A DNA stretch of 44,943 bases from Vulcanimicrobiota bacterium (GCA_003135555.1 PLCF01000031.1:576-45518), one strand, 5' to 3'. Counted from the first letter of the stretch, positions 3,653 to 34,498 are shown. Notes: generated from the letters alone by a model not told the origin. Program-made: numbers and translations.

Positions 3653-3844
3653 ATGGCCTTGGATCCCATCTCTCCAATCATCGGCACGGCCCTGGCCGCG
3701 CGCGAGCACGTCGAACGGTTGGCCCCCGAAGCGGCACGGGACGAGCGCGCCGCGGCTCGGCTGGCCCGGGCAGCGCTCTTCGAAGAGGCGCTCCTGGGCG
3801 CGGTCAAAGCGCACCTGGGCGAGCTGCACACGGTGGCCAAGTGA
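3653..3844 (+). CDS. Minimal FlgB-like rod protein (63 aa)
   Basis: Directly before flgC with GTGA overlap; C-terminus ERAAARLARAALFEEALLGAVKAHLGELHTVAK resembles the FlgB C-terminal helix. Confidence 0.5.
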   Translation: MALDPISPIIGTALAAREHVERLAPEAARDERAAARLARAALFEEALLGAVKAHLGELHTVAK

Positions 3845-4212
3845 GCGAGTTCGACCTGCTGTCGATCGCCGCCGACGGGATGAGCGTCCAGCGGACCCTC
3901 CTCGACGTCGCCGCGCGCAACGTCGCCGCGGCGCAGGCCTCGACTCCGGACCACCCCTATCCGCGTTTCGTCGCGCGCTTCACGGCGCGCGCTTCGGATG
4001 ACGGTTTCCCCGGCGTTCCGGACGACGAGGATGCCGGCGGCGACGACGCGCGCAGCGACCTCGTGGTGGCCGCACGGTCGGGCGAAGGCGCCGACGCGCT
4101 CACCGAGATGATCGCCGTGCTCGAGGCGCAGCGAGCGTATGAGACCAACGCCAGCGTATTCGACGTCGGCAAGAAGCTGGCCGAGCGCACGCTCGACGTC
4201 GGACGGCTCTGA
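3841..4212 (+). CDS. flgC: Flagellar basal-body rod protein FlgC, divergent
   Basis: LSIAADGMSVQRTLLDVAARNVA and EMIAVLEAQRAYETNASVFDVGK; GTG start. Confidence 0.85.
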   Translation: MSEFDLLSIAADGMSVQRTLLDVAARNVAAAQASTPDHPYPRFVARFTARASDDGFPGVPDDEDAGGDDARSDLVVAARSGEGADALTEMIAVLEAQRAYETNASVFDVGKKLAERTLDVGRL

Positions 4213-4484
4213 TGCAGGTCGAGTTGCTCGTCCCCGACGCGCCGGCACCGCGCGGACCGCGGCCGGCGACCGGCCCGGCGAACGCCTTCGCGCAGCTCGT
4301 CGACGCGGCGGGCGCGCTGCTCGAAAACGCAGACCGGGCCGAGGCGGCGTTCGCCGCGCACCGCGGCGGCTTGCAAGAGATGGTCGTCGAGCGTGCGCGC
4401 GCCGATATCGCGGTGCAGGTGGCGGCGACCGCGGCCCAACGCACGGCGCAGTCGCTCGCGACGCTGTTGGGAATGCAGATCTAA
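4212..4484 (+). CDS. fliE: Flagellar hook-basal body protein FliE
   Basis: FAQLV...LQEMVVERARADIAVQ...LLGMQI C-terminus; synteny flgC-fliE-fliF. Confidence 0.85.
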   Translation: MQVELLVPDAPAPRGPRPATGPANAFAQLVDAAGALLENADRAEAAFAAHRGGLQEMVVERARADIAVQVAATAAQRTAQSLATLLGMQI

Positions 4485-4487
4485 CCC

Positions 4488-5945
4488 ATGCCGGCGGCGG
4501 CGTTCCTCGCGCGGCTGCGTGCGGCGTCGCCACGGGCGCGCCTGCTGGGCGCGGTTGCCGCTGCCGCGCTGTTGGCGGTCGCGGCGTTCGGCTTCGTCGC
4601 GTCACGCGACACCCGCGTCGCGCTCTTCGCCACGCCGTTGCGCGCAGATCAGCTGGCGGAAGTCGAAGCGCGGCTCGCGGCGTGGAACGTTCCCTATGCG
4701 GCCGCCCCCGACAATCTGCGCGTCGACCGAGCCAAGCGCGGCGAGCTGTTGCTCAAACTCTCGCTCGCCGGCGTCCCGCACCCGCACCTCGCGGGCAGCG
4801 ATGAAGCCCTCGCGCATCTGGGTGCGCTGACGCCGCAAGCCGTCCTCGAAGCGCAGACGCGCGACGCGCTGGCGGCGGATCTCGCGCTGGGCCTGCGCGG
4901 TTTGGATCGTGTCGCCGACGTGCGCGTGGTGATCGCGCCGTCGAGCGGAGGCGTGTACGCCGACGAGACTCGTCGTGACGCGAGCGCGAGCGTGCGCGTA
5001 ACGCTCGTTGCGGGGACGCGGCTCTCGGCGCGCGCGGTCGCCGGGATCAAGGCCTTCGTCGCCGGCGGGGTACCCGGCCTCGACGCGGAGCGCGTGACCG
5101 TGCTCGACGACCGCGGGCTGGCGCTCGACGCGGACGGCGGCGAAGACGCGCCCGACGTGCAGGCAGCGCTGCAGAGCGCGCTCGACGCGGCGTTCGGCCC
5201 GGGCGCCGCCATCGTGCGCGTGCACCGCGAGCCGGTGGCCGAACGGCGCGACGTGCGCGACGTGCACCGTGCGGCGCTGGGCGGCAGCATCGCGCGGAGC
5301 AGCAGCGACGAGCGCTACGCGTCGACTGCGAAAAAGTACTCCAAGAACAGCACGACCGAGGACCGCGGCAGCGAGACGCGCGAGGAGCGCCGCGTCACCG
5401 CCGCCGGCGCAACCGCGCGCTTGACGGTGGCGATTTTCGTCGACGCGTCGCGCGGACTCGATCTCGCCAAAATCCGCGCGCTCGCCGCCGCGACGGTCGG
5501 GACGCGGCCCGAACGCGGCGACGTGCTGAGCGTTGAAGCGGTGGCGTTCGGCGAGGTCGCGCGAGCGCCTCAAGCGCACGCGCCGGGTTGGGTGCTCGCG
5601 TTGGCCGGACTCGTCCCGCAGGTGCTCACCGCCGCTGCGCTCGTGCTGGTGGTCGCGCTCGCGGCGAAACCCTTGACGACGGTCGCGCTGCGCATCGTCG
5701 AGTCGGCGTCGGCGCGCAGCACGGCGCGCGCCGTCGCCGGGATCCCGCCGGCGCGCGTGCGCGGCGCGCTCGACGGCGAGCCGCCGCACGTGGCGGCCGC
5801 GATCATCTCCGCGCTTCCGGCTTCGACCGCGGCGGCGGTGCTGGAACTCTATCCGGCCGATCAGCGCGCCGCGATCGTGCGGCGTCTCGCGCGTGACAAT
5901 GCGTCGCTGGTCCCGCCGGCCGAGGAACTCATCGGTGAGTGCTGA
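4488..5945 (+). CDS. fliF: MS-ring protein FliF with fused FliG-middle-like C-terminal domain
   Basis: N-terminal TM, YscJ/FliF ring motifs (ASASVRVTL, VAGGVPGLDAERVTVLDDRG), RLTVAIFVD, second TM, then EPPHVAAAIISAL...AAVLELYPADQRAAIVRRLA. Confidence 0.85.
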   Translation: MPAAAFLARLRAASPRARLLGAVAAAALLAVAAFGFVASRDTRVALFATPLRADQLAEVEARLAAWNVPYAAAPDNLRVDRAKRGELLLKLSLAGVPHPHLAGSDEALAHLGALTPQAVLEAQTRDALAADLALGLRGLDRVADVRVVIAPSSGGVYADETRRDASASVRVTLVAGTRLSARAVAGIKAFVAGGVPGLDAERVTVLDDRGLALDADGGEDAPDVQAALQSALDAAFGPGAAIVRVHREPVAERRDVRDVHRAALGGSIARSSSDERYASTAKKYSKNSTTEDRGSETREERRVTAAGATARLTVAIFVDASRGLDLAKIRALAAATVGTRPERGDVLSVEAVAFGEVARAPQAHAPGWVLALAGLVPQVLTAAALVLVVALAAKPLTTVALRIVESASARSTARAVAGIPPARVRGALDGEPPHVAAAIISALPASTAAAVLELYPADQRAAIVRRLARDNASLVPPAEELIGEC

Positions 5946-6417
5946 CTTCGTGTCGCTGGCCGACGTGCTGCGCGCCGCGGCCGTCGCCCCGCCTGCGCCG
6001 GGCGTAGCCGATCCGGAGCGCGACGCAGCGGCACTCGCGACGGTTCCCGAGCCGCCAAGCGCGGCGCCCGATGATGTATACACCGCAGTTCGCGATGCGC
6101 GCCTGTTTCGGGCGCGGCTCGCCGATGCATTCGACGCTGCGTCGGCGCGGCTCATCCGCGAACTCGCCGCCGAGGTGCTCGCGCGCGAGCTGCGCTTGGC
6201 ACCGTGCGATCTCGAATCGCTGCTGCGGCGCGTGCGCGAACGCGTGCCGGTCGTGCGCGTGCGGGTCGCCCCCGCCGACCTGGCGCACGTGCGCGCCGCA
6301 CCGTGCGTCGCCGATCCCGGCCTGGCTGCGGGTGACGCGGTGCTCGAGCTCGACGGCGGCACGCTCGACGCGCGGTTGGGCGTCCGGCTCGCGACGGTCC
6401 TGGACGGGTTCGCATGA
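5935..6417 (+). CDS. fliH: FliH/SctL-family ATPase regulator, shortened
   Basis: VRVRVAPADL...DPGLAAGDAVLELDGGTLDARL C-terminal FliH motif; lies between fliF and fliI. Confidence 0.78.
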   Translation: MSADFVSLADVLRAAAVAPPAPGVADPERDAAALATVPEPPSAAPDDVYTAVRDARLFRARLADAFDAASARLIRELAAEVLARELRLAPCDLESLLRRVRERVPVVRVRVAPADLAHVRAAPCVADPGLAAGDAVLELDGGTLDARLGVRLATVLDGFA

Positions 6418-7655
6418 TCGGGCGTCCGAACGGACGGGTCCTCGCGACGCGCGGTCTGCTCATCGAGGCCGAGCTGCCGTTCGCGCGCATCGGCGACGGC
6501 GTGCGCGTCTGCGCCCGTGACCTCACGGTCGGTGGCCGCGTCGCCGCGCTGCACGGATCGCGCGTCGTCGTCTCGCCGTTCGGCGCCGTCGACGGCGTCG
6601 CGACCGGCGACCGGATCGAGTCCGATCCGGCGGTCCTCGCCGCCGCACTGGGAACGCCGCTATTGGGTCGCGCCGTCGATGCCGCGGGCGCACCGCTCGA
6701 CGGCCTGCCCGCGCCGCCGGGACGACGCCGCCGAGCCGCGCTCGTCGCGCAGCCGGTCGGCCGGCGGCGGCCGTGCCGCGAGGTGCTGTGGACCGGCGTG
6801 CGCGCGATCGACGGCCCGCTGGCGCTGGGGCGCGGCGCGCGCGTCGGGCTCTTCGGCGCCGCCGGCGTCGGCAAGTCCACGGTGCTCGACGCGATCGTGC
6901 GCGGCGCTGCGGTGGATGCGGTCGTGCTCGCGCTCGTCGGCGAGCGCGGTCGCGAGGCGGAGCGCCGCTGCGCAGCCGTCGATGCGCGCACGTCGATCGT
7001 GTGCGCGACGAGCGATCGCGCGCCGGCCGAGCGCGTCCGCGCCGCCGAACTGGCGTTCGCGCAGGCCGCAGCGTTGCGGGACCGCGGGCTGGACGTGCTA
7101 CTGGTGGTCGACTCGCTGGCGCGGATCGCCGCCGCCGCCCGCGAGCTGGGACTGGCGGCCGGCGAGCCTGCCGGCCGAGCGGGATACCCGCCCAGCGCGT
7201 TCGCGCTGCTGGCCCGTTTGCTCGAAACCGCCGGACCGTCCGGCGACGGCAGCGTCACGCTCGTCGCGACGGTGCTCTCGGACGGATCCGAGCAGCACGA
7301 TCCGGTCTGCGAGGCGGCGCGCGCCATGCTCGACGGCCACCTCGTGCTGAGCGAGCGCCTTGCGCAGGCCGGCCGGTTCCCCGCGCTCGACGTCGCGCGC
7401 AGCGTCAGCCGCACGCTGGCCGAGGTCGCCGGGGCCGAGCATGCCGCCGCCGCTGCCGTGCTGCGCGCGGCGACGGCAGCGCTGGAGGACTCTCGCGATG
7501 CGCGGTCGCTGGGGATCGTTTCGGCCGACCCGTTCCTGGCCCGCTGCGTCGCCGCCGAAGCCGCGATCGAGCGGTTCTTGCGCCAAGGGCCGGCGCCGTC
7601 GGCGTCGGGGGAGACCCTCACGGAGCTGCGCCGACTCGCCGATATCCTCACATGA
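6414..7655 (+). CDS. fliI: Flagellar/T3SS export ATPase FliI/SctN
   Basis: Walker A GAAGVGKST, VGERGRE, LLVVDSLAR, GYPPS, DGHLVLSERLAQAGRFPALDV. Confidence 0.92.
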   Translation: MIGRPNGRVLATRGLLIEAELPFARIGDGVRVCARDLTVGGRVAALHGSRVVVSPFGAVDGVATGDRIESDPAVLAAALGTPLLGRAVDAAGAPLDGLPAPPGRRRRAALVAQPVGRRRPCREVLWTGVRAIDGPLALGRGARVGLFGAAGVGKSTVLDAIVRGAAVDAVVLALVGERGREAERRCAAVDARTSIVCATSDRAPAERVRAAELAFAQAAALRDRGLDVLLVVDSLARIAAAARELGLAAGEPAGRAGYPPSAFALLARLLETAGPSGDGSVTLVATVLSDGSEQHDPVCEAARAMLDGHLVLSERLAQAGRFPALDVARSVSRTLAEVAGAEHAAAAAVLRAATAALEDSRDARSLGIVSADPFLARCVAAEAAIERFLRQGPAPSASGETLTELRRLADILT

Positions 7656-8263
7656 TGGACGTCTTCGCTGACATCGCCGCGGTTCAGAACCGGATCGCGG
7701 AGATCACCGGAGCCTTCGCCCCGGCGAATCCGCCGGCGGCGGCCGGGCCGCGTTTCGCGAGCGCCCTCGCCGACGCGCTGCGCCCGGCGAACCCCGCCTT
7801 GGGCCTCCAGCCCGGCGGCTCGGATGCGCCGGGGAGCGGCGTCGCGCCCAGCGCGGCGGCACCCGTCCCGCCGGCCCAGATCGACGCGCTGGTCGAGCAG
7901 AACGCCCAGACGTGGCAAGTCGATCCGGCGCTGATCAAGGCCGTCATCGCCAACGAATCGGGTTTCAACGCCAACGCCACCTCGAGCGTGGGGGCGCAAG
8001 GCCTCATGCAACTCATGCCCGCGACCGCGGCGTCGCTGGGCGTAAAAAACGCCTACGATCCGGCGCAGAACGTCGCCGGCGGCACGCACTATCTGCGCGG
8101 CCTGCTCGACCGCTTCGGCGGCGACAAGCGCTTGGCGATCGCCGCCTACAATGCAGGTCCCGGCGCGGTAGAGAAGTACGGTGGCGTTCCACCGTATGCC
8201 GAGACGCGCAACTACGTCCAAAACGTCCTGGCTTCGTTCGAAAAGTACAACAGCGGTCGCTGA
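7652..8263 (+). CDS. Lytic transglycosylase (SLT domain)
   Basis: LIKAVIANESGF, GAQGLMQLMP, AIAAYNAGPGAV, PPYAETRNYV; ATGA overlap with fliI. Confidence 0.93.
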   Translation: MMDVFADIAAVQNRIAEITGAFAPANPPAAAGPRFASALADALRPANPALGLQPGGSDAPGSGVAPSAAAPVPPAQIDALVEQNAQTWQVDPALIKAVIANESGFNANATSSVGAQGLMQLMPATAASLGVKNAYDPAQNVAGGTHYLRGLLDRFGGDKRLAIAAYNAGPGAVEKYGGVPPYAETRNYVQNVLASFEKYNSGR

Positions 8264-9818
8264 GCGCCTCGGGCACGCCGCTCTCGTTCTGACGATCGCA
8301 GTCGCACTGGCGACGCCCGCTGCGGCGAAGCGTGCGGCCGAAGCGACCGTGCCGGTCGCGACGATCCTGCGCGCGTACGACGGTGCCACCCACGCCGACG
8401 ACGTGAAGACGTTCGTAGCCGAAGGAACGCTCAGCGGTGAAGGCCTGACCGGCACGTATCGCATCGTGCGCGACGGGACCAACGAACGCGAGGACGACGT
8501 GCTCGGACCGCGCCGCGAAACGTCGTTGCGTCTGGGCGACAAGCTGTACTTGCGCAACTCCAACGGCAACGTGCGCGAGCTACGGGGCTACTTGCGCCGG
8601 CGCGCGCTCACCGAGGAGCTGCTCGATTCCGGCGAGTTCGTCAAGCACCCCGAGCTGGCGCGGTTCGCCGGCTGGGGCGATTTCGGATCGGCCAGGGTCT
8701 GGCGGCTCGAAGTCAACGCCCAAGGCGGCGAGCCCGAGACGCTGTGGATCGATCCTGCGAGCGGCCTGCCGCTGCGGTTGGAGTACCTCGACGGCGACGG
8801 CCCGTCGTTCGTCGACTACTCCGACTGGCGCGACGTGCAAGGGCGGAAGATCGCCTTTCGCAACGTGGTCAGCGACGGCGACCATCGTTTCGATACCGTG
8901 CAGCAGACGACGTCGGTGATCCTCGACGGTGCCGTCGATCCGGCGACGTTTGCGGCGCTCGCCCCGCGCCTGCTCGCAACCGACCGCGTCCACGTCGTGC
9001 CGCTGATCGAGCGCGGCGGGCACGTCGGTGTCAACGTGCGCATCGCGGGCAAGGATTGGTTCTTCATCCTCGACACCGGCGCGCAGTCGATCCTCGTCGA
9101 CACCGCCGTGCTCAAGGCCGCGGGCGTCGCCGGGCAGGGAGCGATGGAGGTACGCGGCGCGTCGCGCAGCGGCGGGCTCACCGCCGCGACGCTGCCGCAG
9201 ATCGACGTCGACGGCGCGCACGTCGACGACGTGGTCGTGTCGTCGCTCGACATCGCCCAGAATTTCGGCGGTGGAATGAAGATCGACGGCATCTTGGGAT
9301 ACCCGTTCTTCGCCTGGGCGATGGTGGAGATGGACTTCGCCAAGCACGTGCTGCGCTTCGGCCCGCCGGGATCGTTCGCGCCGCAGGGCACGCGCATCGA
9401 CCTCGACGTCGATCGCGAGTTGGCCGAGGCGACCGTGCGCGTCAACAACCGGCTCGACGCGCCGTTCATCGTCGACACCGGAAACAGCGGCGAGATGCTG
9501 CTGTACCGCCCGTTCCTCGACGCGCATCCGGGGGTCGTCCCGTTCTCCGCGACCTCGTCGTGGAGCTACGGTTTGGGCGGGGCGAATGCGACGTACCGCA
9601 CCTCGCTCGACGCGGTCAAGCTCGGCGGCTACGAACTCTATCACCGCAGCGTCGACGTCGTCCTGGCCAACAACGGCGCTTTCGCCGATCGCGTCGATGC
9701 GGGGAACGTCGGCTTGGGCGTGCTGCGCAATTTCGTCGCGACGTTCGATCTGGCCAATGCGTCGCTGTACTTGGCGCGCGGTGCGAGCTTCGACGACGGG
9801 CGGAGCCGGACGCGCTAG
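8181..9818 (+). CDS. Secreted aspartyl protease with two retropepsin-like domains; start uncertain, probably near 8256-8291
   Basis: FILDTGA and FIVDTGN motifs, DGILGYPFF and GNVGLGVL closures, signal-peptide-like segment ALVLTIAVALATPAAA. Confidence 0.85.
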   Translation: MAFHRMPRRATTSKTSWLRSKSTTAVAERLGHAALVLTIAVALATPAAAKRAAEATVPVATILRAYDGATHADDVKTFVAEGTLSGEGLTGTYRIVRDGTNEREDDVLGPRRETSLRLGDKLYLRNSNGNVRELRGYLRRRALTEELLDSGEFVKHPELARFAGWGDFGSARVWRLEVNAQGGEPETLWIDPASGLPLRLEYLDGDGPSFVDYSDWRDVQGRKIAFRNVVSDGDHRFDTVQQTTSVILDGAVDPATFAALAPRLLATDRVHVVPLIERGGHVGVNVRIAGKDWFFILDTGAQSILVDTAVLKAAGVAGQGAMEVRGASRSGGLTAATLPQIDVDGAHVDDVVVSSLDIAQNFGGGMKIDGILGYPFFAWAMVEMDFAKHVLRFGPPGSFAPQGTRIDLDVDRELAEATVRVNNRLDAPFIVDTGNSGEMLLYRPFLDAHPGVVPFSATSSWSYGLGGANATYRTSLDAVKLGGYELYHRSVDVVLANNGAFADRVDAGNVGLGVLRNFVATFDLANASLYLARGASFDDGRSRTR

Positions 9819-9827
9819 CCTCCCTAC

Positions 9828-9843
9828 GTAACATTCGCGCAAC
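9828..9843 (+). promoter_or_regulatory. Shared motif copy (GTAACATTCGCGCAAC), followed by TAGGGT -10 at 9866-9871
   Basis: GTAAC-N6-GCAAC direct repeat; near-identical to 13472-13487. Confidence 0.55.
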
Positions 9844-9891
9844 ACGCGGGTCGTAGCCGGCGCGGTAGGGTCGGGGCGGAGGCACCGACTC

Positions 9892-10420
9892 ATGCACGAT
9901 TCCACCGGCGTCGCGGTCGTCGCGACGCACCTTGCCGCCGCCGACCGCCGCGCACTCTCCCAAGCGTGGTACAGCGCGCTGCACCTCGCCGAACGAGCCG
10001 CGCCGCGGCGGCCCCGGTTCGCGCCTGCGACTCGCGCGCCCGGGCTCGCACCGCCGTTGCGCAGCACTGCGAGCCCCGCGCCGGCGCCGGCCGCTGCGGC
10101 GCGCATCGTTCGCGCCGCATGCTCGGCCGCGCCGGGATCGCGCGGCAAGCCGGAACCCGGCGGAGCGGAGCGGCGCGCGCCGGCCAGCGAGCTCGCGCGC
10201 CGCATCGAGACCGCGGTTGCGCCGCCGACCCAACGCGGCGAGCGCCGGCTTCGTGTTGCGCGCCGGCGGCGGACGCGTACACGTCGTGGTGCGCTGCATC
10301 GGCGCGCGAACGCGCATCGTGGCCGTCTGCGCGCCGTCCTTGCGCGAGCGTGTCGAGCGCGCGCTGGCGCAGGCTCGTTTCGCGCTGGCGGGTCGCGGCG
10401 TCCCGGCGGAGGTCGCATAG
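9892..10420 (+). pseudogene. FliK-C/T3S4-like protein split by a +1 frameshift near 10222 (pseudogene or sequencing error)
   Basis: GGAGG plus ATG 9892 reads to ...RIETAVA; removing one base near 10222 continues RRPNAASAGFVLRAGGGRVHVVVR...RERVERALAQARFALAGRGV to stop 10420, adjacent to next ATG 10422. Confidence 0.55.
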
Positions 10421-10421
10421 C

Positions 10422-11147
10422 ATGCACGGAGCGTCGCCGCTCGACGCCTACGACCGCGTGCTGTCGCGCGCAACGGATCTGCGCGAGATCTTCCGAGCCG
10501 GCGCGCTGCCGCTCAACGACGACGTCGGCACCGGCCCGCGGCTCGTGCCGTCGAGCGATCCGCTCAGCGTCGTACCGCCGCCCGGCGCGTGGCTGGTGAC
10601 GCGCGCCGCGGATGGCCGCCGGGCGTACGAGCGCGACGGGACGTTTTCGCTCGCCGACGGCGTGCTGCGCACGCGCGACGGCGCCGAGGTGTTGGGGTAT
10701 CCCGGCGGCGACGCGCGCGGCGCGGTTCCCGTCCCGCTGCGCGTGCCGCCCACCGATCGTGCGCTCGGACGCGGCGCAGACGCGCGCGTCGAGAGCGACG
10801 GCACGGTCGCGTACACGCGCGCCGCGATCGACCCACGCACCGGAACGCGCGCCGACGAGCGGATCGTACTGGGTCGCCTGGCGCTGGCGCGCTTTCCGGC
10901 CGGCACGCACCTCCAGCGCCTCGACGCAGCCCGCGCCGCCGCTCCGCCGGGCGTCGTGCCGCACGTTGGGAAGCCCGGCGACGACACGTTTCCGGTGCTG
11001 GCGACGTTCAGCCGCGACGCCGGCGGCATCGACGTCGCCGCGGGGGTCGCGCGCTTGGACGAAGCCTATCGCGCCTTCGAGGCGCTGAGCGCTGCGCTCA
11101 AGTCCCGCATGGCGGTCCAAAAGACGACCGTCGACCTCGTCAAATGA
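10422..11147 (+). CDS. FlgF/FlgG/FlgE-family rod/hook protein, divergent
   Basis: YERDGTFSLADGVLRTRDGAEVLG, VESDGTV, LGRLALARFP, C-terminal DEAYRAFEALS...VDLVK. Confidence 0.8.
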   Translation: MHGASPLDAYDRVLSRATDLREIFRAGALPLNDDVGTGPRLVPSSDPLSVVPPPGAWLVTRAADGRRAYERDGTFSLADGVLRTRDGAEVLGYPGGDARGAVPVPLRVPPTDRALGRGADARVESDGTVAYTRAAIDPRTGTRADERIVLGRLALARFPAGTHLQRLDAARAAAPPGVVPHVGKPGDDTFPVLATFSRDAGGIDVAAGVARLDEAYRAFEALSAALKSRMAVQKTTVDLVK

Positions 11148-14287: not shown

Positions 14288-14437
14288 ATGAACGGACCAA
14301 AGCGTGCGACGGGCAAGCCGTCAAAGGTCCTTATTACGGCGTTGGTCGTATCCGTAATGCTCCTCGTCGGGCTGCCGCTCATTCTCTTCGCGTACGTCAT
14401 CACTCGCGTGGACAGGATGCTACTTCCCGGGCACTGA
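14288..14437 (+). CDS. Putative small single-TM protein (49 aa)
   Basis: Basic N-terminus followed by VLITALVVSVMLLVGLPLILFAYVI. Confidence 0.35.
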   Translation: MNGPKRATGKPSKVLITALVVSVMLLVGLPLILFAYVITRVDRMLLPGH

Positions 14438-14646
14438 CGCGCCTGCGCAACGCACTCTCTGTCGGCCTTCTACGAGGACCGGCAGCCCGAGTTCCCGGCC
14501 CTCGATGCGTCCGCCGCCCACATCCACGCGATCACCCAAGCACTCTGGCGATCGTAAATCATGCCGTGTCCAAACCCGCCGGTCATCCGGATCGTGGACA
14601 CCAAGAAAATGGTCTTCCGCGCGCCCTCGGGGAATGGTGCCTAATC

Positions 14647-15525
14647 ATGCGCATCGCGGAGAAGATTGGGACCCGGCGGCCGTTCTTTTCGTTCGAGTTC
14701 TTTCCGCCCAAGGACGACGCGGCGGAGAAGAACCTGTTCGCGACGATCGAGGCGCTCAAGCCGCTCGACCCGGGCTTCGTCTCGATCACCTACGGCGCGG
14801 GCGGATCGACGCGCACGCGCACGGTGGAGTTGGCCAAGCGGCTGCGCAGCGAGATCGGCTTCGACGTGATGGCGCACCTGACGTGCGCCGGCGCCACCGC
14901 CGACGAGCTGCGCGCGCTGCTCAACGACCTGCGCCGCGGCGGGATCGAGAACATCATGGCGCTGCGCGGCGATCCGCCCAAGGGGACCGAAGCCTTCGTC
15001 ACCGCGGCGGGCGGTTTCGCGCACGCCAGCGACCTGATCGCCCTCATCAAGTCGGAGTTCGCGTTTTGCGTCGGCGGCGCGTGCTATCCCGAGAAGCACC
15101 CCGAGGCGACGAGCCTCGATGCGGACCTCGCCGCGCTGTCGACCAAGGTGCGCGCCGGCGCGGAATTCTTGGTCACGCAACTGTTCTTCGACAATGCGCG
15201 CTACGTCGAGTTCGTCGAGCAGGCGCGGCGCTGGGGGATCACGGTGCCGATCCTGCCCGGGATCATGCCGATCACCAACTACGACCAGATCGACCGCTTC
15301 ACGCGCGGGTGCGGCGCGGTCATCCCGCCCAGCCTGCGCGCCGAGCTCGAAGCGCGCCGCGACGACTCCAACGCGATCGTCGACTTGGGCGTCGCCTACA
15401 TGACGCTGCAAGTCGCCGACCTGCTCGCCCGCGGCGCGCCGGGCGTGCACTTTTACACCCTCAACCGCTCGCCCGCGACGAGGGCCGTCGTCTCCGCGCT
15501 CAAGGCGGCCCGGCGCGCGTGGTGA
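14647..15525 (+). CDS. metF: 5,10-methylenetetrahydrofolate reductase
   Basis: FSFEFFPPK, FVSITYGAGG, AHLTC, ALRGDPP, YPEKHP, TQLFFD, HFYTLN. Confidence 0.97.
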   Translation: MRIAEKIGTRRPFFSFEFFPPKDDAAEKNLFATIEALKPLDPGFVSITYGAGGSTRTRTVELAKRLRSEIGFDVMAHLTCAGATADELRALLNDLRRGGIENIMALRGDPPKGTEAFVTAAGGFAHASDLIALIKSEFAFCVGGACYPEKHPEATSLDADLAALSTKVRAGAEFLVTQLFFDNARYVEFVEQARRWGITVPILPGIMPITNYDQIDRFTRGCGAVIPPSLRAELEARRDDSNAIVDLGVAYMTLQVADLLARGAPGVHFYTLNRSPATRAVVSALKAARRAW

Positions 15526-15526
15526 A
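15484..15526 (+). repeat. 43-bp direct repeat A (3' end of metF)
   Basis: 42/43 identical to 16748-16790. Confidence 0.95.
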
Positions 15527-15540
15527 GAGACGATCCGACG

Positions 15541-16629
15541 TCAGCTGTTCTCCGGCGGCGTCATGATGGCGCCTATGACCGTCTCGTCACCGAAGTAGTA
15601 CGAATGTGATCTCCCCGTGATCCGATCGGGCAGAGAGACTGTGGGTACGGCGCTACGCGCTGAATACTTCACGCTCGGCCTGCGGATCGGCGTCGTCGTC
15701 GCGATCCAGTCATTTGAAGAATTGAAGTCTTGCCAGCGGGTGACGTCCGCATTTGCAAGGCAGGAGTCGATCAAGGGGTCGACGAGCGCGGGGTTCTCGG
15801 CCGACAAAAACTTCAGAAAGCCGCCGAGCGTTACGAGTCGAATCGGATGGCGTAGAGCGTCCTCGTGGTCGAGATAGTCCAGAGCCATCACGCACCCGAA
15901 ACTATGAGCTACGAGAGAGACGTGTCGGTACCCAGCGTTGGTGACGCGCGGCACGACTTGCGCTAGCGTCTGACGAAGTTGGGCGCGCATCGTCACGCCT
16001 GTTCGATCCGTGGCTCCGAAGAGATAGCGGCGCAAAAGGTCCGCGAGATCGATGCTGCGATCGACGTCGACGTTCAAAACCGTCAGGACCGCAGTTGCCC
16101 AGATCAATGGTTTGACTTCCAACATCGACGCCCCTAGGTCGCTCACTCGCTTGTCCCAGTCGGTGCCAAACGCTCCTGAGTGACCTATCGCCGTCAACGC
16201 GATCGCAACGGTGCCATACAGCCACAACACGATGAGCGAGAGACTCAGCACGATCGCGACCGCCCAAAACGGAGACTCGCGAAACGACTTCACGAGCCGG
16301 AGATTGAGAAACGAGAAGAGCAGAAGGAAACCCGTTGGCAACTTCTGCCACCATTTCCCCGCACTCGCGAAGTCGAACTTGGCTTTCCACTCGACTTCGA
16401 AGATATCGGTCGAGGTGACGACTTCGGTTTTCGCGTCGCGCACGGTGACCTGCGTACCGCTTAGGCCTTCGATCGTCGCCGTCGCTTCGGCGTAGCCTAC
16501 GCCGCTGTTGTACTGACGGATTCCTGCGAGGAGCAGCGTCAGCGACGCTTCGCGCGTTACGGATGTCTCAAATCCAGGGACCAGGATGATCGCGTTTGCT
16601 TGCGCTCGCTGTGCCACACCGTCGGTCAT
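15541..16629 (-). CDS. Membrane-anchored alpha/beta-hydrolase (lipase-like), foreign composition
   Basis: IILVPG, TM segments, LVAHSFG nucleophile elbow, LVTLGG, NDWIA, HSYY; AGGAG upstream; visibly more AT-rich than flanks. Confidence 0.7.
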   Translation of the reverse strand: MTDGVAQRAQANAIILVPGFETSVTREASLTLLLAGIRQYNSGVGYAEATATIEGLSGTQVTVRDAKTEVVTSTDIFEVEWKAKFDFASAGKWWQKLPTGFLLLFSFLNLRLVKSFRESPFWAVAIVLSLSLIVLWLYGTVAIALTAIGHSGAFGTDWDKRVSDLGASMLEVKPLIWATAVLTVLNVDVDRSIDLADLLRRYLFGATDRTGVTMRAQLRQTLAQVVPRVTNAGYRHVSLVAHSFGCVMALDYLDHEDALRHPIRLVTLGGFLKFLSAENPALVDPLIDSCLANADVTRWQDFNSSNDWIATTTPIRRPSVKYSARSAVPTVSLPDRITGRSHSYYFGDETVIGAIMTPPENS

Positions 16630-16696
16630 GGAGGTTGCTCCTAGCAGTATCGAGGTTTGCCGCCTCTGTTGCATGCTTGAGCAACCGATCCATCCT

Positions 16697-16729
16697 TCGC
16701 CGCGACGCGCGGCGGCAAGATCCCGGCGC
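16697..16729 (+). repeat. 33-bp repeat B' (degenerate copy of fliQ upstream region)
   Basis: 29/33 identical to 17597-17629. Confidence 0.85.
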
Positions 16730-16747
16730 GACACAGGCCGCGTAGAT

Positions 16748-16790
16748 GCCGTCGTCTCCGCGCTCAAGGCGGCCCGGCGCGCATGGTGAA
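16748..16790 (+). repeat. 43-bp direct repeat A' (orphan copy of metF 3' end, AVVSALKAARRAW*)
   Basis: 42/43 identical to 15484-15526. Confidence 0.95.
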
Positions 16791-16799
16791 ACGGTCGAG

Positions 16800-17564
16800 A
16801 TGACCACGACGCTCCACGGCACGGCCGCGCTCGTCACGGGCGCCAGCTCCGGGATCGGTGAAGCGACGGCGCTCGCGCTGGCGCAGCACGGTGCCGCCGT
16901 GGCGCTGGCGGCGCGGCGCAAGGATCGCCTCGAGGCGCTCGCCGCGCGCATTCGCGCCGCGGGCGGGCAGGCGCTGGTGCTCGAAGCCGACGTCACCGAC
17001 GAGCGCCAAGCCCGCGCGATCGTCGAGCGCACCGTCGCCGAACTCGGCCGGCTCGACATCTTGGTCAACAACGCCGGCCTGATGCTGCTCGGGCCGATCC
17101 CCGACGCCGACGTCGACGAGTGGCGCCGGATGCTCGACCTCAACGTGAACGGGCTGCTGTTCTGTGCCCACGCAGCGCTGCCGCACTTGCTGCGCGCCGC
17201 GCAGGACGGACCGCGGCGGGTCGCCGACATGATCAACGTCAGCTCGGTCGCGGGCCGCAATGCGCGGGCCAATGCGGGCGTCTACAACGCCACGAAGTTC
17301 GCGGTCGGGGCGTTCAGCGAGGCGCTGCGCCAAGAGGTGACGCGCAAACACGTCCGCATCGCGCTGATCGAGCCCGGCCTAGTCGAAACGGAGCTGCGCA
17401 GCCACAACCGGCCCGAGGTCCAAGAGCAGCTCGCCCGCGCCAACCCCGTCGACGATCCGCTGCAGGCGGCCGACATCGCCGATGCGGTCGTCTACGTCGT
17501 GACGCGTCCGCGCCACATGGCCATCAACGAAGTGCTGATTCGCCCGACCCAACAGGAGCGCTGA
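16800..17564 (+). CDS. SDR-family NAD(P)-dependent oxidoreductase
   Basis: VTGASSGIG, ILVNNAG, YNATK, AINEVLIRPT. Confidence 0.95.
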   Translation: MTTTLHGTAALVTGASSGIGEATALALAQHGAAVALAARRKDRLEALAARIRAAGGQALVLEADVTDERQARAIVERTVAELGRLDILVNNAGLMLLGPIPDADVDEWRRMLDLNVNGLLFCAHAALPHLLRAAQDGPRRVADMINVSSVAGRNARANAGVYNATKFAVGAFSEALRQEVTRKHVRIALIEPGLVETELRSHNRPEVQEQLARANPVDDPLQAADIADAVVYVVTRPRHMAINEVLIRPTQQER

Positions 17565-17596
17565 CCGCTCCGATGCCCGCGGCGTAAGCGCCGTCA

Positions 17597-17629
17597 TCGC
17601 CGCGACGCGCAGCGGCAACATCGTGGCGC
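17597..17629 (+). repeat. 33-bp repeat B (fliQ upstream region)
   Basis: 29/33 identical to 16697-16729. Confidence 0.85.
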
Positions 17630-17641
17630 CAGGCTGGTCGC

Positions 17642-17908
17642 ATGGACGCCTTCGAAGGTCTGCTGCGCGACGCGCTGCTCGTTACCGCGGTGCTGGCGTT
17701 GCCGGTCCTCGTCATCGCGACGCTCGTCGGAGCGGTCGTCGCGGTGCTGCAGGCCGCGACCCAGGTGCAGGAGCAGACGCTCACGATCCTGCCCAAGGTG
17801 CTCGCGGTCGGCGCGATGGTGGCGCTGTTCGGGCGCTTCGGAATGGCGCTGTGCGCGCAGCTGTTCACCGAGGTCGTCGCGCGCATCCCGCTGGTGACGC
17901 GCGGTTGA
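17642..17908 (+). CDS. fliQ: Export gate protein FliQ/SctS
   Basis: LQAATQVQEQTLTILPK motif. Confidence 0.95.
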   Translation: MDAFEGLLRDALLVTAVLALPVLVIATLVGAVVAVLQAATQVQEQTLTILPKVLAVGAMVALFGRFGMALCAQLFTEVVARIPLVTRG

Positions 17909-18612
17909 CGCAGACGACGTTGCTCGTGCTGGCCCGATCGGCGGGGATGATCGCGCGCGCGCCGGGGTTCGCGCACCCGTCGGTGCCGCCGTTGGTGCGC
18001 GCCGGCCTCGCGCTGGCGCTCGCGGTTGCCGTCGCACCGCAGGTCCCGCACGCCCCCGCGCTGGGCTTCGCCGCGTTCACGCTGGCGCTGGCCGGGGACT
18101 TCGCGCTCGGTGCGGCGATCGGGTTGGGCGCAGCGCTGCTCTACGACGGCGCGTACTTCGCCGGCCGGACCATCGACGACTATCTCGGCGTGCGCGGCAG
18201 CGTGCCGGGCGCGAACGTCGCCGGCGCTCAGGCCTTCGGACGGTTGTGGTCGTCGGCGTTCCTGATCGCGTTCTTCCTCCTCGACGGCTGGGTGCCAGTG
18301 GTACGCGCATTCGCCGGCTCGTTCGCGCACGTCGGCGCCGGCGCGTTCGCCGCAACGCACGGGTGGACGCGCTTCGCATACGCGCTCCCGGCCACGATCG
18401 TCTCCGCCGCGTTGCTCGTCGCGGCGCCGGCGATCGCGGTGGCGGCGACGCTGCAGCTGGCACTCGCGGCGGTGGCGCGCGTCGTGCCGCGTTTCGCCAG
18501 CTTCGCGCTCGCGTTTCCGCCGGTCTTCGCTGGGGCGCTCGCGGTCACGTTGGCGATGGTGCCGCTGGTCGCCCCGCTGGGCGCGCGGCCGTGGCTGCCG
18601 CTGCCGTGGTGA
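17905..18612 (+). CDS. fliR: Export gate protein FliR/SctT, divergent
   Basis: ARSAGMIARAPGF...VPPLVR, AGRTID, AAPAIA...ARVVPRFASFALAFP; TTG start overlapping fliQ stop. Confidence 0.85.
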   Translation: MTQTTLLVLARSAGMIARAPGFAHPSVPPLVRAGLALALAVAVAPQVPHAPALGFAAFTLALAGDFALGAAIGLGAALLYDGAYFAGRTIDDYLGVRGSVPGANVAGAQAFGRLWSSAFLIAFFLLDGWVPVVRAFAGSFAHVGAGAFAATHGWTRFAYALPATIVSAALLVAAPAIAVAATLQLALAAVARVVPRFASFALAFPPVFAGALAVTLAMVPLVAPLGARPWLPLPW

Positions 18613-18628
18613 CGACCGGCGACGCACG

Positions 18629-19639
18629 GTGAGCGCCGGCGCAAAGCCCTTCGACGCGACGCCGGCGCGGCGGGCGCGGGCACGCCGCGAGGGCAACGTG
18701 GCGCGCTCGGCCGAGGCGACCAGCGTCGCGGCGTTCGGCGCGGCGATCTTGGCGACGCTGGTCGCCGTGCCATTGGCCGCCGGCGTCGCCGCGAACACGC
18801 TGCGCGTCACGGCGCGGCGGGGGACCGACATCGAGCCGTCGGCGTATGCGCTGCTGGCCGTCGCGGCGTTGCTGCCGGTGGCGGCCGCGGCGACTGCGGG
18901 CTGTGCCGTCGCGCTGGCGCAGTCGGGCGGGCTGCACGTCACGCCGCTGCGGCTGGATGGGGGTCGGCTCGAACCGTTCGCCGGCCTCAGACGCATCCTA
19001 GGCGGGGAAGCGGCGGTCGCCGCGTTGCGCGGCGCGTTGGCGTTCGCCGTCGCGCTGCTCGCCGTCGCGCCGGTGGTCCGCGACGCCGTCGCTTCGGGTG
19101 CCGCGTCGGCGTCGCCGCTCGCCGCCGCGTCGCTCGCCGGGAGCGCGGCGTTGCGCGCCGCTCTGGCCGCGGCCGCGGTCGGCGCGGGCTTCGCGCTGGC
19201 GGATTATGCGCTGGCGCGCCGGCGCTGGCTGCGCAGTCTGCGCATGTCGCTCGAGGAGCTCAAGCGCGACGCCAAGGAACACGACGGCGATCCGCAGGCG
19301 CGGCTGCGCCGCAAGAGCGCGCATCGTGCGCTGGTGCGCGGCTCGATCTCGCGGCTGCGCGAGGCGTCGTTCGTGGTGGTCAACCCCGCGCACGTCGCCG
19401 TTGCGATGCGCTATGCGCCGCCCGCCGTGCCGGTCCCCGAGGTTCTCGTGCGCGCGCTCGACGCGGCGGCGCTGCGCGTGAAGTCGATCGCGCGCGAGCG
19501 GCGCATCCCGGTGGTGGAAGACGCCGCCCTCGCGCGGCTGCTCTACGCCCGCGGCGAGAGCGGGCGGCCGATCCCCGCGCAAGCCTACGTCGCGGTCGCG
19601 CAGATAATCGCCGCGCTGGCGCGCGAGGGCGTGCTGTGA
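18629..19639 (+). CDS. flhB: Export switch protein FlhB/SctU
   Basis: ATPARRARARREGNVARS, LRMSLEELKRDAKEHDGDP, VVVNPAHVAVAMRY, IPVVEDAALARLLY. Confidence 0.9.
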   Translation: MSAGAKPFDATPARRARARREGNVARSAEATSVAAFGAAILATLVAVPLAAGVAANTLRVTARRGTDIEPSAYALLAVAALLPVAAAATAGCAVALAQSGGLHVTPLRLDGGRLEPFAGLRRILGGEAAVAALRGALAFAVALLAVAPVVRDAVASGAASASPLAAASLAGSAALRAALAAAAVGAGFALADYALARRRWLRSLRMSLEELKRDAKEHDGDPQARLRRKSAHRALVRGSISRLREASFVVVNPAHVAVAMRYAPPAVPVPEVLVRALDAAALRVKSIARERRIPVVEDAALARLLYARGESGRPIPAQAYVAVAQIIAALAREGVL

Positions 19640-21696
19640 CGGGCTCGCGACTGGCCGGCTCGTTCGCCGTGCTCGTGCTCGGCGTCGTCGCCATCCTGAT
19701 CGTGCCGCTGCCGCCACCGCTGCTCGACGCGCTGCTGGCGCTCAACATCTTCGGCTCGGCGCTGGTGCTGCTGATCAGCCTGCGTGTCGAGGAACCGCTG
19801 GAGTTCTCGGCCTTCGCACCGGCGCTGCTGTTGGCGACGCTGTTCCGGCTCTCGCTCGATGTGAGCGCGACCCGGCTGATCCTCACGCAGGGCCACGATC
19901 CCGGCGGCGTCGGCGCGCTGATCCCCGCGTTCGGCGCCTTCGTCGTCGGCGGTAACGTCGTCGTGGGGTTGATCGTCTTCGCGATCCTGATCACCATTCA
20001 ATTCGTGGTGATCGCCAGCGGCGCGCAACGCGTCGCCGAAGTCTGCGCGCGGTTCACGCTCGACGCGATGCCGGGCAAACAGATGGCGATCGACGCCGAC
20101 CTGCACGCCGGGCTGCTCGACCCCGACGTCGCGCGGCGCAAGCGTGCGCGGGTGCAGCGTGAAGCCGACTTCTACGCCGCCATGGACGGCGCCGGAAAGT
20201 TCGTCAAAGGCGACGCGATCGCCGCGCTGGTAATCGTGGTCCTCAACCTGCTCGGCGGCGTCCTCGTCGGGACGGTCTACCACGGGATGGGGCCGCTCGA
20301 GGCGATCGAAACGTTCGCCATCCTGTCGATCGGCAACGCGCTGCTCACCACGCTGCCCGCATTTTTGATCTCGACCGCGATGGGGCTGATGGTCACGCGC
20401 GTCGCCGGCGACGGCGCCCTCGGCGCCGATCTCGCGGCGCAGCTTTTGGCGCGGCCCGACGTCTTGCGCATCGCCGCGCTGCTCGTGCTCGCGCTGGCCT
20501 GCGTGCCGTCGTTACCGGGGCCGCTCTTCGCCACGTTGGGGATCACGGCGCTGGGCGGGGCACAGCTCGCGCAACGGCACCGGCGGCGCGTCGACGAAGC
20601 AGCGCACGCGGCGGCGGAGCAGCGGCGCCGCCAATTGGTGCGGCGGCCGGAGACCGCGTTCGGCCTCGTCGGCGTCGACGCTCTGGCGATCGAGGTCGGC
20701 GCCGACCTCTATCCGCTGCTCGCCGCGCCGAACTGTGACACGCTGCTCGACCGCATCGCCGACGTGCGGCGGGCGTTGGCGGCCGAAACCGGGATCGTGA
20801 TCCCGGGCGTCCGGCTGCGCGACGACCCGCTGCGCGATCCGCGCAGCTACGCGCTGCGCGTGCGCGACCGCGTCGCGGGCGAAGGGATCCTGCGGCTCGA
20901 GCGCCTCGTCGCGGTCGGCGACCCGGAGCGCTTGGAGCGCATCGGCGGCGAGCCGACGACCGAACCGGTCTACGGTTTAGCCGCACGCTGGATCACCTAC
21001 GAATCGCGCGAGCGGGCCGTGGCCGCCGGCGCGCTGACCTTCGATGCCATCTCGATCGTGGTCTCGCACCTCGCCGAGACCGCACGCGCGCATGCGGCCG
21101 ACCTATTTGGGCGTCAGGAGTTTGCAACGCTCGTCGAGCACTTGCGCGGCTCGGTGCCGGCGGTCGTGAAGGATGTCGGTGAGGTTCTTCCAGTCGGTGT
21201 CGCGCACCGCGCCTTCGTCCACCTGTTGCGCGAGCGCGCGTGGCCGCGCGATCCGGTCGCCGCCTTCGAAGCCATGGTCGACGCCGCGGCGACGACGCGC
21301 GACCCGCGCGAGCTAGCCGAGGCCGTGCGCCGCGTCATCGTCCCGCAGCAGCTGCGCCGGGACGGCGTCCGTGCATTGCGACCCTTGATCGTCGCGCCGG
21401 CGTTCGAGGCCGAGCTGGCGCGAACGTGGTCGCCTGAGGCTGGACCGGCGCCCGATCCGCGCACGGCGTTGCACGTGCGTACCGAGATCGCGCGCTACGC
21501 CGCCGACCCGAGTTGCGCGCCGCATGCGATCGTCGCAACCGCGGCGTTGCGCCCGCTGCTGGCCGAGCTGCTCGAACGCAGCGTCCCGGCCGTCGCGGTC
21601 TACTCCTATGCCGAGCTCCCGCCCGAGGTCGCGCTGGAACCCGTCGCCGTGCTCGACGCGCCGGCGGCGGTCGCGGGGGCGTTTCCGGCGGTTTAG
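19636..21696 (+). CDS. flhA: Export gate protein FlhA/SctV
   Basis: RVAEVCARFTLDAMPGKQMAIDADL, DFYAAMDGAGKFVKGDAIA, FGRQE, VYSYAEL. Confidence 0.95.
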   Translation: MTGSRLAGSFAVLVLGVVAILIVPLPPPLLDALLALNIFGSALVLLISLRVEEPLEFSAFAPALLLATLFRLSLDVSATRLILTQGHDPGGVGALIPAFGAFVVGGNVVVGLIVFAILITIQFVVIASGAQRVAEVCARFTLDAMPGKQMAIDADLHAGLLDPDVARRKRARVQREADFYAAMDGAGKFVKGDAIAALVIVVLNLLGGVLVGTVYHGMGPLEAIETFAILSIGNALLTTLPAFLISTAMGLMVTRVAGDGALGADLAAQLLARPDVLRIAALLVLALACVPSLPGPLFATLGITALGGAQLAQRHRRRVDEAAHAAAEQRRRQLVRRPETAFGLVGVDALAIEVGADLYPLLAAPNCDTLLDRIADVRRALAAETGIVIPGVRLRDDPLRDPRSYALRVRDRVAGEGILRLERLVAVGDPERLERIGGEPTTEPVYGLAARWITYESRERAVAAGALTFDAISIVVSHLAETARAHAADLFGRQEFATLVEHLRGSVPAVVKDVGEVLPVGVAHRAFVHLLRERAWPRDPVAAFEAMVDAAATTRDPRELAEAVRRVIVPQQLRRDGVRALRPLIVAPAFEAELARTWSPEAGPAPDPRTALHVRTEIARYAADPSCAPHAIVATAALRPLLAELLERSVPAVAVYSYAELPPEVALEPVAVLDAPAAVAGAFPAV

Positions 21697-34497: not shown

Positions 34498-34498
34498 C

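Follow-up and report, generated by a model that had tools for sequence, protein, structure and literature searches.

The argument that flagella can turn into secretion machines rests mainly on one lineage, that of the injectisome and its Myxococcales relatives, and a second, independent lineage would put it to the test. Reduced flagella are also known from Buchnera aphidicola, which keeps hook, FliG and ring genes and in which Maezawa et al. in 2006 reportedly found flagellar basal bodies without filaments. Lateral flagella, Flag-2 and fla2, which occur as a second gene set beside the primary one in the same genome, are complete motile flagella or recent pseudogene remnants. The Myxo non-flagellar type III secretion system (NF-T3SS) of Myxococcales is a member of the NF-T3SS clade without secretin or needle, as portrayed in the excerpted text of Abby and Rocha (2012; PMC3459982); it lacks FlgBCDEK, FliE and FliG, and protein translocation or the assembly of a periplasmic structure was suggested as its role. 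Here we analyze a flagellar-type gene cluster in a window of 44,943 nucleotides, which corresponds to positions 576-45518 of contig C60 in a draft metagenome-assembled genome (MAG; hereafter G000) of a soil bacterium of the Vulcanimicrobiaceae, phylum Eremiobacterota (WPS-2). The cluster (window positions 3632-21696, plus strand) encodes FlgC, FliE, FliF, FliH, FliI, a FliM-like protein, FliN, FliPQR and FlhBA. We consider it likely that these genes specify an old, vertically inherited, non-rotary basal-body and type III export apparatus.

The G000 assembly comprises 3.57 Mb in 98 contigs (84% complete, 3.3% contamination, 68% G+C), and the nearest named record for the window FlhA comes from a Vulcanimicrobiaceae MAG (81% identity). 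We scanned the 54 open reading frames (ORFs) of the window with Pfam and the cluster proteins also with NCBIfam, and assessed gene content through tblastn and Pfam. As relatives we used G020 (a single contig, 99% complete) and G007 from the same genus, G127, G072, G079 and G147 from other genera of the family (f1), G025-G027 from the sister family (f2) and, at the class level, family f3 (11 genomes, 94-98% complete) and G037. G000 and 40 relatives formed a 41-genome sample, while the phylum was represented by 151 genomes at least 85% complete with G000 included, 81 of which belong to f1. In a limited literature collection we found no published description of this system for Eremiobacterota/WPS-2 flagella or type III secretion, and a search on reduced flagellar systems in general returned nothing specific to it.

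The first-pass annotation of this DNA, made from the sequence, had proposed a full flagellar export core with intact FliI Walker motifs, and this was borne out. All six of FliP, FliQ, FliR, FlhB, FlhA and FliI exceed their Pfam cut-offs (Table 1), FliH matches weakly, with orthologues in nine genomes, and FliI carries Walker A (GAAGVGKS), Walker B (LLVVDS) and catalytic-glutamate (GERGRE) motifs. In NCBIfam, FliI scores similarly against FliI_clade1 (342.7 bits) and SctN (337.7 bits), both below cut-off, and FlhA scores higher against the flagellar model TIGR01398 (612 bits) than against the SctV-type TIGR01399 (476 bits). Pfam likewise recovered the annotated membrane-supramembrane (MS) ring, FliM-like, fliN and flgC genes. 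The ring protein is of the FliF type in NCBIfam and not SctD/SctJ, and the FliM family's N-terminal part was not detected in the FliM-like protein by Pfam or NCBIfam. For fliE, position and a conserved C-terminus agree with the assignment, although neither database returns a family match. The label 'FlgB' for the small ORF upstream of flgC had to be dropped, as this ORF is conserved in relatives and yet matches no family in either database. The translational coupling noted before holds, since seven gene junctions are 4-base ATGA/GTGA/TTGA or TGATG overlaps. The genes in the original parts list are thus largely confirmed, but four parts had gone unnoticed, namely an SLT-domain transglycosylase, an aspartyl protease, the FliG_M-like tail of FliF and a putative ruler resembling FliK.

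When compared to a canonical flagellum, the system shares the gate, the ATPase, the MS ring, a FliM/FliN ring, FliE, rod proteins, an FlgE-fold subunit, a putative FliK-like ruler and a flagellar-clade FlhA. Its order flgC-fliE-fliF-(fliG)-fliH-fliI-...-fliK-flgE-fliM-fliN-fliP-Q-R-flhB-flhA is colinear with the Bacillus-type fla/che operon. As the first-pass annotation had stated, none of the window ORFs matches flagellin, FlgD/K/L, FliD, FlgH/I, MotA/B, FliG_C, FliA or a Che domain in Pfam; the N-terminal domain of FliG is also missing, and FliJ, FliO and FlgB went undetected. The cluster therefore differs from a motile flagellum in having no torque FliG, no MotA/MotB, no flagellin with FlgK/FlgL and no FlgH with FlgI, and further in its FliG_M on FliF, a hook without outer domains and an in-cluster SLT protein and aspartyl protease. 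Nothing can turn it as a rotor, since it has neither FliG_C nor stators.

The other described systems resemble the cluster in part. Like the Myxo NF-T3SS in the excerpted account (PMC3459982), it is related to the flagellum, has no motility parts, no secretin and no known extracellular conduit, and occurs in free-living hosts. Unlike that system, it keeps FlgC, FliE-like, FlgF/G-like, FlgE-like, FliK-like and FliF proteins and a flagellar FlhA, and it would be a separate and independent reduction. Buchnera also retains basal-body and export genes without flagellin, and protein transport has been suspected there, according to the excerpts of PMC8109811. In that case the only flagellum of an endosymbiont was recently reduced, whereas the window system is an old paralogous lineage of free-living soil bacteria, with a remodelled FliF-FliG, that coexists with a full flagellum in some members. 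In our working model it resembles the injectisome sorting platform (SctQ/K/L/N on SctD/J), in that a non-rotating SpoA-domain ring and an ATPase would sort substrates. However, the locus contains no SctV-clade gate, no secretin SctC and no SctD/SctJ, SctK and SctF are missing as well, and docking is proposed to occur via the FliG_M-like FliF tail. Secondary flagella share with it the coexistence of two gene sets in one genome, but the window set is without motor and filament and outlives the loss of the primary system.

One remodelled part of the cluster is FliF. This protein of 485 amino acids (aa) has an 80-residue cytoplasmic domain after its second membrane helix (residues ~405-485), of which residues 423-469 match FliG_M in Pfam (E 4e-8). 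The tail is kept in 13 orthologues with an invariant Glu431 inside the segment 'EPPH..AAAIISALP', which we take to resemble the EHPQR region, the part of FliG in contact with FliM. The combination of YscJ_FliF, YscJ_FliF_C and FliG_M is annotated in nearly all of 120 listed database relatives, which databases label simply FliF; among these listed relatives, all source names shown are of the Eremiobacterota type except one truncated name ('Candidatus Sulfote...'). We infer that FliG lost all but its middle domain, which became joined to the FliF C-terminus. A complex prediction for the FliF tail and the FliM-like protein scored 0.68, compared to 0.27 for the best control, on a scale whose mark is reached by 116 of 157 solved complexes and by 2 of 215 mismatched pairs. 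Contacts agreed between runs by at least 97%, the partner had a predicted local distance difference test (pLDDT) score of at least 81, and the predicted interface joins FliM-like residues 97-126 with FliF residues 428-439 and 466-481. This prediction is a likeness to FliG_M-FliM and not proof of binding.

The axial protein upstream of fliM had been annotated as rod- or hook-like, which its predicted fold corroborates. Its Pfam match to LlgE_F_G_D1 is weak (22 bits), and its AlphaFold2 model (pLDDT 79.8) consists of two helices (residues 6-22 and 205-240) that flank a beta domain. Foldseek returned 43 PDB matches at E ≤ 0.001, all the listed ones being flagellar hook, rod or axial assemblies, and the best match was FlgE D1 (9wwj_L, E 8.8e-8, template-modelling score TMt 0.78). 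In the model, the protein thus has the terminal D0 helices and the D1 beta domain of FlgE, FlgF and FlgG. The gene upstream encodes a FliK-like protein, intact in orthologues at 174-190 aa. Its N-terminus and its C-terminal domain are conserved, whereas the spacer between them is variable and rich in Pro, Arg and Ala; Pfam Flg_hook recognizes the C-terminal domain in 3 of 8 orthologues, at best with E 5.1e-5. Its model (pLDDT 65.6) has as top Foldseek match the substrate-switch domain of the needle ruler PscP (5cuk; weak E 0.045, prob 0.96). The hhalign comparison of its alignment with canonical FliK landed on the Flg_hook region, albeit with E 0.61, and a PDB profile search with the same alignment gave no match. 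In G127 (C1, 9913-11193, minus strand) the FliK-like and mini hook genes share one frame without a stop, so that a fusion or read-through is possible. The N-P-x-H autocleavage site of FlhB is present in all 13 orthologues compared (NPTH in 10, NPAH, NPHH and NPSH in one each). Outside the window, contig C58 of G000 carries an FlgF/FlgG-like pair, distinct from the canonical pair on contig C19, followed by a FliA/WhiG-like sigma factor. The best family of this sigma factor is TIGR02479 (FliA/WhiG sigma-28), at 109.2 bits against a cut-off of 189.6, and Pfam and NCBIfam detected no FlgM-like protein near it. The same trio recurs in G037.

The cluster is not the only flagellar gene set of its host. 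A second, higher-scoring FHIPEP protein (875 versus 635 bits; 38% identity to the window FlhA) lies on contig C94, which according to Pfam, tblastn and a MotB_plug search carries FliF, FliG N/M/C, FliH, FliI, FliK, FlgD, FlgE, FlbD, MotA and MotB, as well as FliM, FliN, FliP, FliQ, FliR, FlhB, FlhA, a PilZ protein, CheA and CheW. Contig C19 adds flagellin, FliW, CsrA, FlgK, FlgL, FlgM, FlgI, FlgA and FlgG, and contig C40 a flagellin. The sole FliG_C of G000 is on C94, as is its one MotB_plug match, beside the canonical MotA. G000 therefore holds two flagellar-type gene sets with two export gates, of which the window is the divergent one. The description of the system as motor-less and filament-less stands for the cluster but not for the organism, which has a complete canonical flagellum. 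The first-pass annotation would have given up its reading had motor and filament genes been found elsewhere with the window gate as the only one; because the canonical set has its own export gate, this is not what the genome contains.

The coexistence of two sets raises the question of whether the cluster serves the canonical flagellum as an accessory module, perhaps as a second basal body to which the other set lends hook, filament and stators. Both sets do occur together in G000, in 27 of the 29 flagellin-positive f1 genomes sampled and in f2, whose genomes carry a canonical-type FlhA ~41% identical to the window FlhA. Yet the window-type set is kept without a canonical flagellum in G020, in f3 and in more than half of the f1 genomes that have it: by a tally made by hand, with window-type FlhA defined by a best E ≤ 2.5e-184, 73 of 81 f1 genomes hold this FlhA and 46 of those have no flagellin over cut-off. 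The set also has its own rod pair and sigma factor, and no FliG C-domain with which to engage stators. We find an accessory role hardly credible.

Beyond f1, the system persists widely. Gene-by-gene tblastn recovered the same gene order, with no stops in the matches, in G020, G007, G127, G072, G079, G147 and G025-G027, and G018, examined from fliN to flhA, keeps the order without stops there. In G037 the system is split over three loci and flhA abuts secD. The SLT gene is found in the cluster across the phylum and the aspartyl protease in f1 and f2. Identity of window-type FlhA declines from 74-83% within the genus to 56-59% in f2 and 46-52% in f3. In the 41-genome sample, 10 of 11 f3 genomes carry it as their only FlhA, none of the 11 has flagellin or FliG_C, and neither is found in G020. 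In the phylum sample, f3 shows FlhA in 9 of 10 genomes and flagellin in 0 of 10. Overall, 144 of the 151 genomes have FlhA, whereas flagellin over cut-off is present in 51, FliG_C in 86 and MotB_plug in 56. Two further families combine FlhA (16/17 in f5, 5/5 in f12) and FliG_C (14/17 and 5/5) with no flagellin (0/17 and 0/5), MotB_plug being found in 2 of 17 (both weak) and in 3 of 5 (weak), respectively.

These distributions bear on whether the cluster could encode a motility organelle that is cryptic but complete, with filament, junction and stator proteins that have diverged beyond the reach of profile searches. In favor of it, the presence of a FliK-like ruler and of a hook-like subunit implies a polymer of controlled length, external or periplasmic, after which later substrates would follow, and clusters of the same kind in other classes keep a full-length FliG. 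Against it, no FliG_C was found in Vulcanimicrobiia outside the canonical set. MotB_plug is missing from all five flagellin-less genomes G020, G037, G127, G072 and G079, and MotA_ExbB has one match per flagellin-less genome, possibly TolQ/ExbB. G020 and four f3 genomes have no FlgH (0/5) and no FlgI (0/5), one FliF each, and just three Flg_bbr_C proteins each, namely the cluster FlgC and a tandem FlgF/FlgG-like pair elsewhere. Sub-cut-off 'flagellin' matches (21-23 bits) appeared in nine genomes of genus g12; they were located in four of these, and as the single protein inspected belongs to the HlyD family, we reject them as flagellins. Moreover, the only cultured member of the genus, Vulcanimicrobium alpinum, has no flagella and no flagellin gene and moves by type IV pili, as reported in the excerpted description (PMC9758169), whose Table S8 lists a fliN and whose excerpted text makes no mention of secretion. 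A hidden motility organelle is thus unlikely. The presence of 'flagellar' genes in Eremiobacterota genomes does not imply motility, which matters for their annotation.

To trace the origin of the cluster, we relied on FlhA. Window-type sequences form a fully supported clade (100) whose internal order matches the taxonomy from genus through family and order to class, and which branches within flagellar FlhA, a long way from the four SctV sequences included. The link that the first-pass annotation had drawn to the evolution of non-flagellar T3SS therefore survives as an analogy, not as kinship. The sister group (Shimodaira-Hasegawa-like approximate likelihood ratio test, SH-aLRT, 99) consists of in-cluster FlhA from seven other families of the phylum; their clusters are arranged in the same way (SLT follows fliI, and fliM is preceded by a short FlgE-like gene) and encode a full-length, divergent FliG with a C-domain of 66-100 bits. 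Many genomes with such clusters, as in f5 and f12, are likewise without flagellin and without a clear MotB. Canonical FlhA of Vulcanimicrobiales forms a separate clade among Chloroflexota, Thermoleophilia and Bacillota sequences. A duplication within Vulcanimicrobiales as the source of both the window and the canonical FlhA is disfavored (log-likelihood difference 49, approximately unbiased (AU) test p 0.035), with a p-value of only 0.035 for a group that was named after the tree had been seen. The simplest reading of these sequences would be that the window set is an old native lineage of the phylum that lost most of FliG in class Vulcanimicrobiia. Since the FlhA clade tracks taxonomy from genus to phylum, it has been retained for a very long time.

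We then measured the ratio of nonsynonymous to synonymous substitution rates (dN/dS) by the Nei-Gojobori method (NG86) for 20 locus genes between the window and G020 or G007. The values range between 0.09 and 0.61, with no stops, and are rough estimates because the method is a simple counting one and the third-position G+C bias is strong. In particular, dN/dS is 0.18-0.19 for fliP, 0.21-0.22 for flhA, 0.26-0.29 for fliF, 0.29-0.40 for the hook-like gene, 0.36-0.39 for fliI and 0.40-0.47 for flhB, while the neighboring cyclase and metF genes show 0.18-0.25 and 0.19-0.23, respectively, and canonical FlhA shows 0.15-0.19 in the same genome pairs. With dN/dS well under 1, the set is constrained, though faster-evolving than the canonical one. 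Together with the persistence in flagellum-less genomes, these data support the earlier claim of purifying selection rather than simple decay for the cluster.

Several observations nevertheless weigh against a conserved, working apparatus, and some of them are those expected if a second flagellar system were slowly decaying and its remnant were retained only through chance or polar effects on genes embedded in it, such as metF. The proteins are shortened, and 13 of the 15 cluster proteins scanned with NCBIfam fall below curated cut-offs or match nothing, FliP and FliN alone passing; the set has thus diverged strongly and may have lost some functions. FlhA evolves faster than its canonical counterpart, with 56-58% identity to f2 compared to 75-77%. 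Unrelated genes are inserted between fliN and fliP and between fliP and fliQ, and accessory genes are variably missing, with no SLT found in G079 and no aspartyl protease in G127. FliJ, FliO, FlgB and FlgD, which model flagella need, were not found by profile searches. In the window itself, two bases (GC) are lacking behind position 10218, which puts the FliK-like gene out of frame. To these points must be added that the absences come from Pfam profile searches over mostly draft MAGs, and that the trees are of FlhA alone and were built with fast methods (FastTree on 65 FlhA/SctV rows; an IQ-TREE LG+G4 quick search on 53 rows). The docking score may mirror solved FliG_M-FliM complexes rather than binding of these copies, because such complexes have been solved. 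None of the listed sequencing runs containing the locus is recorded as RNA.

Decay fits poorly with the rest of the evidence. Eight further genomes of the family and sister family keep the cluster syntenic and stop-free, with the core complete or nearly so, and G018 does likewise over fliN-flhA. The dN/dS values approach those of the neighboring housekeeping genes, the FlhA clade indicates long retention, and conservation extends to the cleavage motif of FlhB, the catalytic motifs of FliI and the tail of FliF. The frameshift is absent from contigs of all four other peat-metagenome runs compared (three studies, among them one that may be the source of the MAG), where two extra bases behind 10218 restore the frame, so that the break in the window is probably an assembly error or a rare variant. 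We regard slow decay as distinctly improbable.

If the cluster specifies a non-rotary export apparatus, its parts suggest how this may work. The FliF tail would hold the FliM-like/FliN ring directly on the MS ring as a torque-free sorting platform, which would serve the FliH/FliI ATPase and the FliPQR-FlhBA gate. The gate would export FliE, FlgC, the FlgF/G-like proteins and the mini hook, with the SLT protein opening the peptidoglycan for the axial structure. Once a short axial structure is complete, the FliK-like ruler and FlhB autocleavage may switch substrates. After the switch, late cargo might pass into the periplasm or beyond, or a fixed envelope structure might remain; other options would be secretion of a protein that regulates the linked sigma factor, or no later substrate at all. 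Judging from gene neighborhoods, expression is probably coupled both to the FliA-like sigma factor and to signaling by cyclic nucleotides, the latter because a GAF-PAS cyclase is a conserved neighbor, adjacent to the cluster in the genus, in f2 and in G037.

The same neighbors could indicate that the system is chiefly a regulatory checkpoint, in which a minimal exporter serves only to expel an inhibitor when cyclic-nucleotide or envelope signals call for it, an anti-sigma factor of the linked sigma factor being one candidate. The sigma factor adjoins the FlgF/G-like pair in G000 and G037, the cyclase is conserved, and both switch parts, the FliK-like protein and FlhB, are present. However, no FlgM-like protein lies near the sigma factor, whose own family match is below cut-off, and the rod, hook-like subunit and transglycosylase seem more than such a device needs. 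We hold a checkpoint to be improbable.

A wider interpretation of the non-rotary apparatus is that of a phylum-wide, vertically inherited and independent exaptation of the flagellum into an envelope or export machine without filament and stators; in Vulcanimicrobiia, all that is left of FliG would be a middle domain joined to the MS ring. Such a machine would be a living analogue of the hypothetical intermediate between flagellum and injectisome, in a culturable host open to cryo-electron tomography and genetics. We give this interpretation a little less than an even chance. If true, it would show which flagellar parts are dispensable, whether substrate sorting can be the sole task of a cytoplasmic ring (C-ring), and what role such a machine plays in free-living soil bacteria. 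The existence of a cultured host in the genus raises the value of the system.

Table 1. Genes of the flagellar-type cluster, with inserted and adjacent genes (window positions)
Feature	Position	Strand	Evidence
GAF-PAS adenylate/guanylate cyclase	1850-3562	-	Pfam Guanylate_cyc, GAF, PAS; divergently transcribed neighbor
Small ORF, ~70 aa	3632-3844	+	Orthologues in G007, G020, G147, G026, G027; no Pfam/NCBIfam match
FlgC-like proximal rod protein	3850-4212	+	Flg_bbr_C 26.6 bits; TIGR01395 49.8 bits (cut-off 102)
FliE-like	4212-4484	+	Position between flgC and fliF; C-terminal '...LLGMQV/I' kept in 7 orthologues
FliF MS ring with FliG_M-like tail	4488-5945	+	YscJ_FliF, YscJ_FliF_C, FliG_M
FliH-like ATPase stator/regulator, 174 aa	5893-6417	+	Pfam FliH 18.9 bits, E 0.0015, below cut-off; precedes fliI
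FliI-type T3SS ATPase	6414-7655	+	ATP-synt_ab 198 bits; T3SS_ATPase_C
SLT-domain lytic transglycosylase	7652-8263	+	Pfam SLT 108.8 bits; top NCBIfam match BB0259 flagellar-assembly lytic transglycosylase, 95 bits (cut-off 234)
Retropepsin-like aspartyl protease	8181-9818	+	Asp_protease_2, two stretches; likely signal peptide by eye
Putative FliK/SctP-like ruler/switch protein	9892-10420	+	Frameshifted in this assembly near 10218
Mini hook/rod subunit, 241 aa, D0-D1 only	10422-11147	+	Predicted fold; positional equivalent of FlgE
FliM-like C-ring protein, 269 aa	11144-11953	+	FliMN_C 45.5 bits only; TIGR01397 24 bits (cut-off 220)
FliN	11950-12207	+	FliMN_C 91 bits; TIGR02480 104.8 bits (above cut-off 84)
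Fic/DOC protein (DUF4172, Fic, helix-turn-helix)	12235-13362	-	Between fliN and fliP
FliP	13491-14180	+	Pfam FliP 238.7 bits; TIGR01103 231.9 bits (above cut-off 217.45)
metF (methylenetetrahydrofolate reductase)	14632-15525	+	MTHFR 304 bits; between fliP and fliQ
Hydrolase-like ORF	between fliP and fliQ	-	Unrelated to flagella
Short-chain dehydrogenase/reductase (SDR)	between fliP and fliQ		Unrelated to flagella
FliQ	17642-17908	+	Bac_export_3 69.5 bits
FliR	17905-18612	+	Bac_export_1 93.6 bits
FlhB	18629-19639	+	Bac_export_2 227 bits; NPAH at autocleavage site
FlhA	19636-21696	+	FHIPEP 635.6 bits; TIGR01398 611.7 bits (below cut-off 772); divergent clade specific to Eremiobacterota

Among the inserted genes, metF is an odd case of a housekeeping gene fixed inside a flagellar-type cluster. 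It lies at the same place in all six f1 genomes compared (G020, G007, G127, G072, G079 and G147), while in f2 fliP and fliQ are adjacent without it. The Fic match is absent from the corresponding loci of G020, G007 and the other relatives compared.

Two relatives carry additional FlhA-type genes. G108 (f1, 1.9 Mb) has two FlhA copies, on contigs C18 and C62, each 56% identical to that of the window, together with FliG_C and MotB_plug matches on C62 and no flagellin match. In G028, a 90%-complete f2 MAG, a third FHIPEP gene (contig C346, L148) groups with Paracoccus SctV (SH-aLRT 98) and may derive from a real non-flagellar T3SS or from contamination.

The only secretin of the window (32758-34206, minus strand) lies outside the cluster, in a complete Tad/Flp pilus locus (31072-41728). 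This locus also encodes TadE/TadG-like proteins, a Flp pilin, a prepilin peptidase, RcpC/CpaB, a T2SSE ATPase of 687 aa whose N-terminal part is CbiA/ParA-like, two TadB/C-like proteins and an ORF of 629 aa without family. The idea that its secretin serves the cluster was rejected, as the genes just downstream of flhA are not found downstream in the relatives compared. Between the cluster and the Tad locus lie a Crp-type regulator that binds cyclic nucleotide monophosphates (25259-25918, minus strand) and a GAF-PAS-PAS-GGDEF-EAL protein of 1062 aa (27939-31127, minus strand), which, counting the GAF-PAS cyclase, makes the region dense in second-messenger signaling genes. Also downstream of the cluster, positions 24666-25253 encode a protein with a domain of the CAP/SCP family (cysteine-rich secretory proteins) that probably carries a signal peptide. 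Beyond the pilus genes, an AbiEi-type antitoxin and a DUF6036 nucleotidyltransferase (41798-43332) likely form a type IV toxin-antitoxin pair, followed by Fur (minus strand) and SecD.

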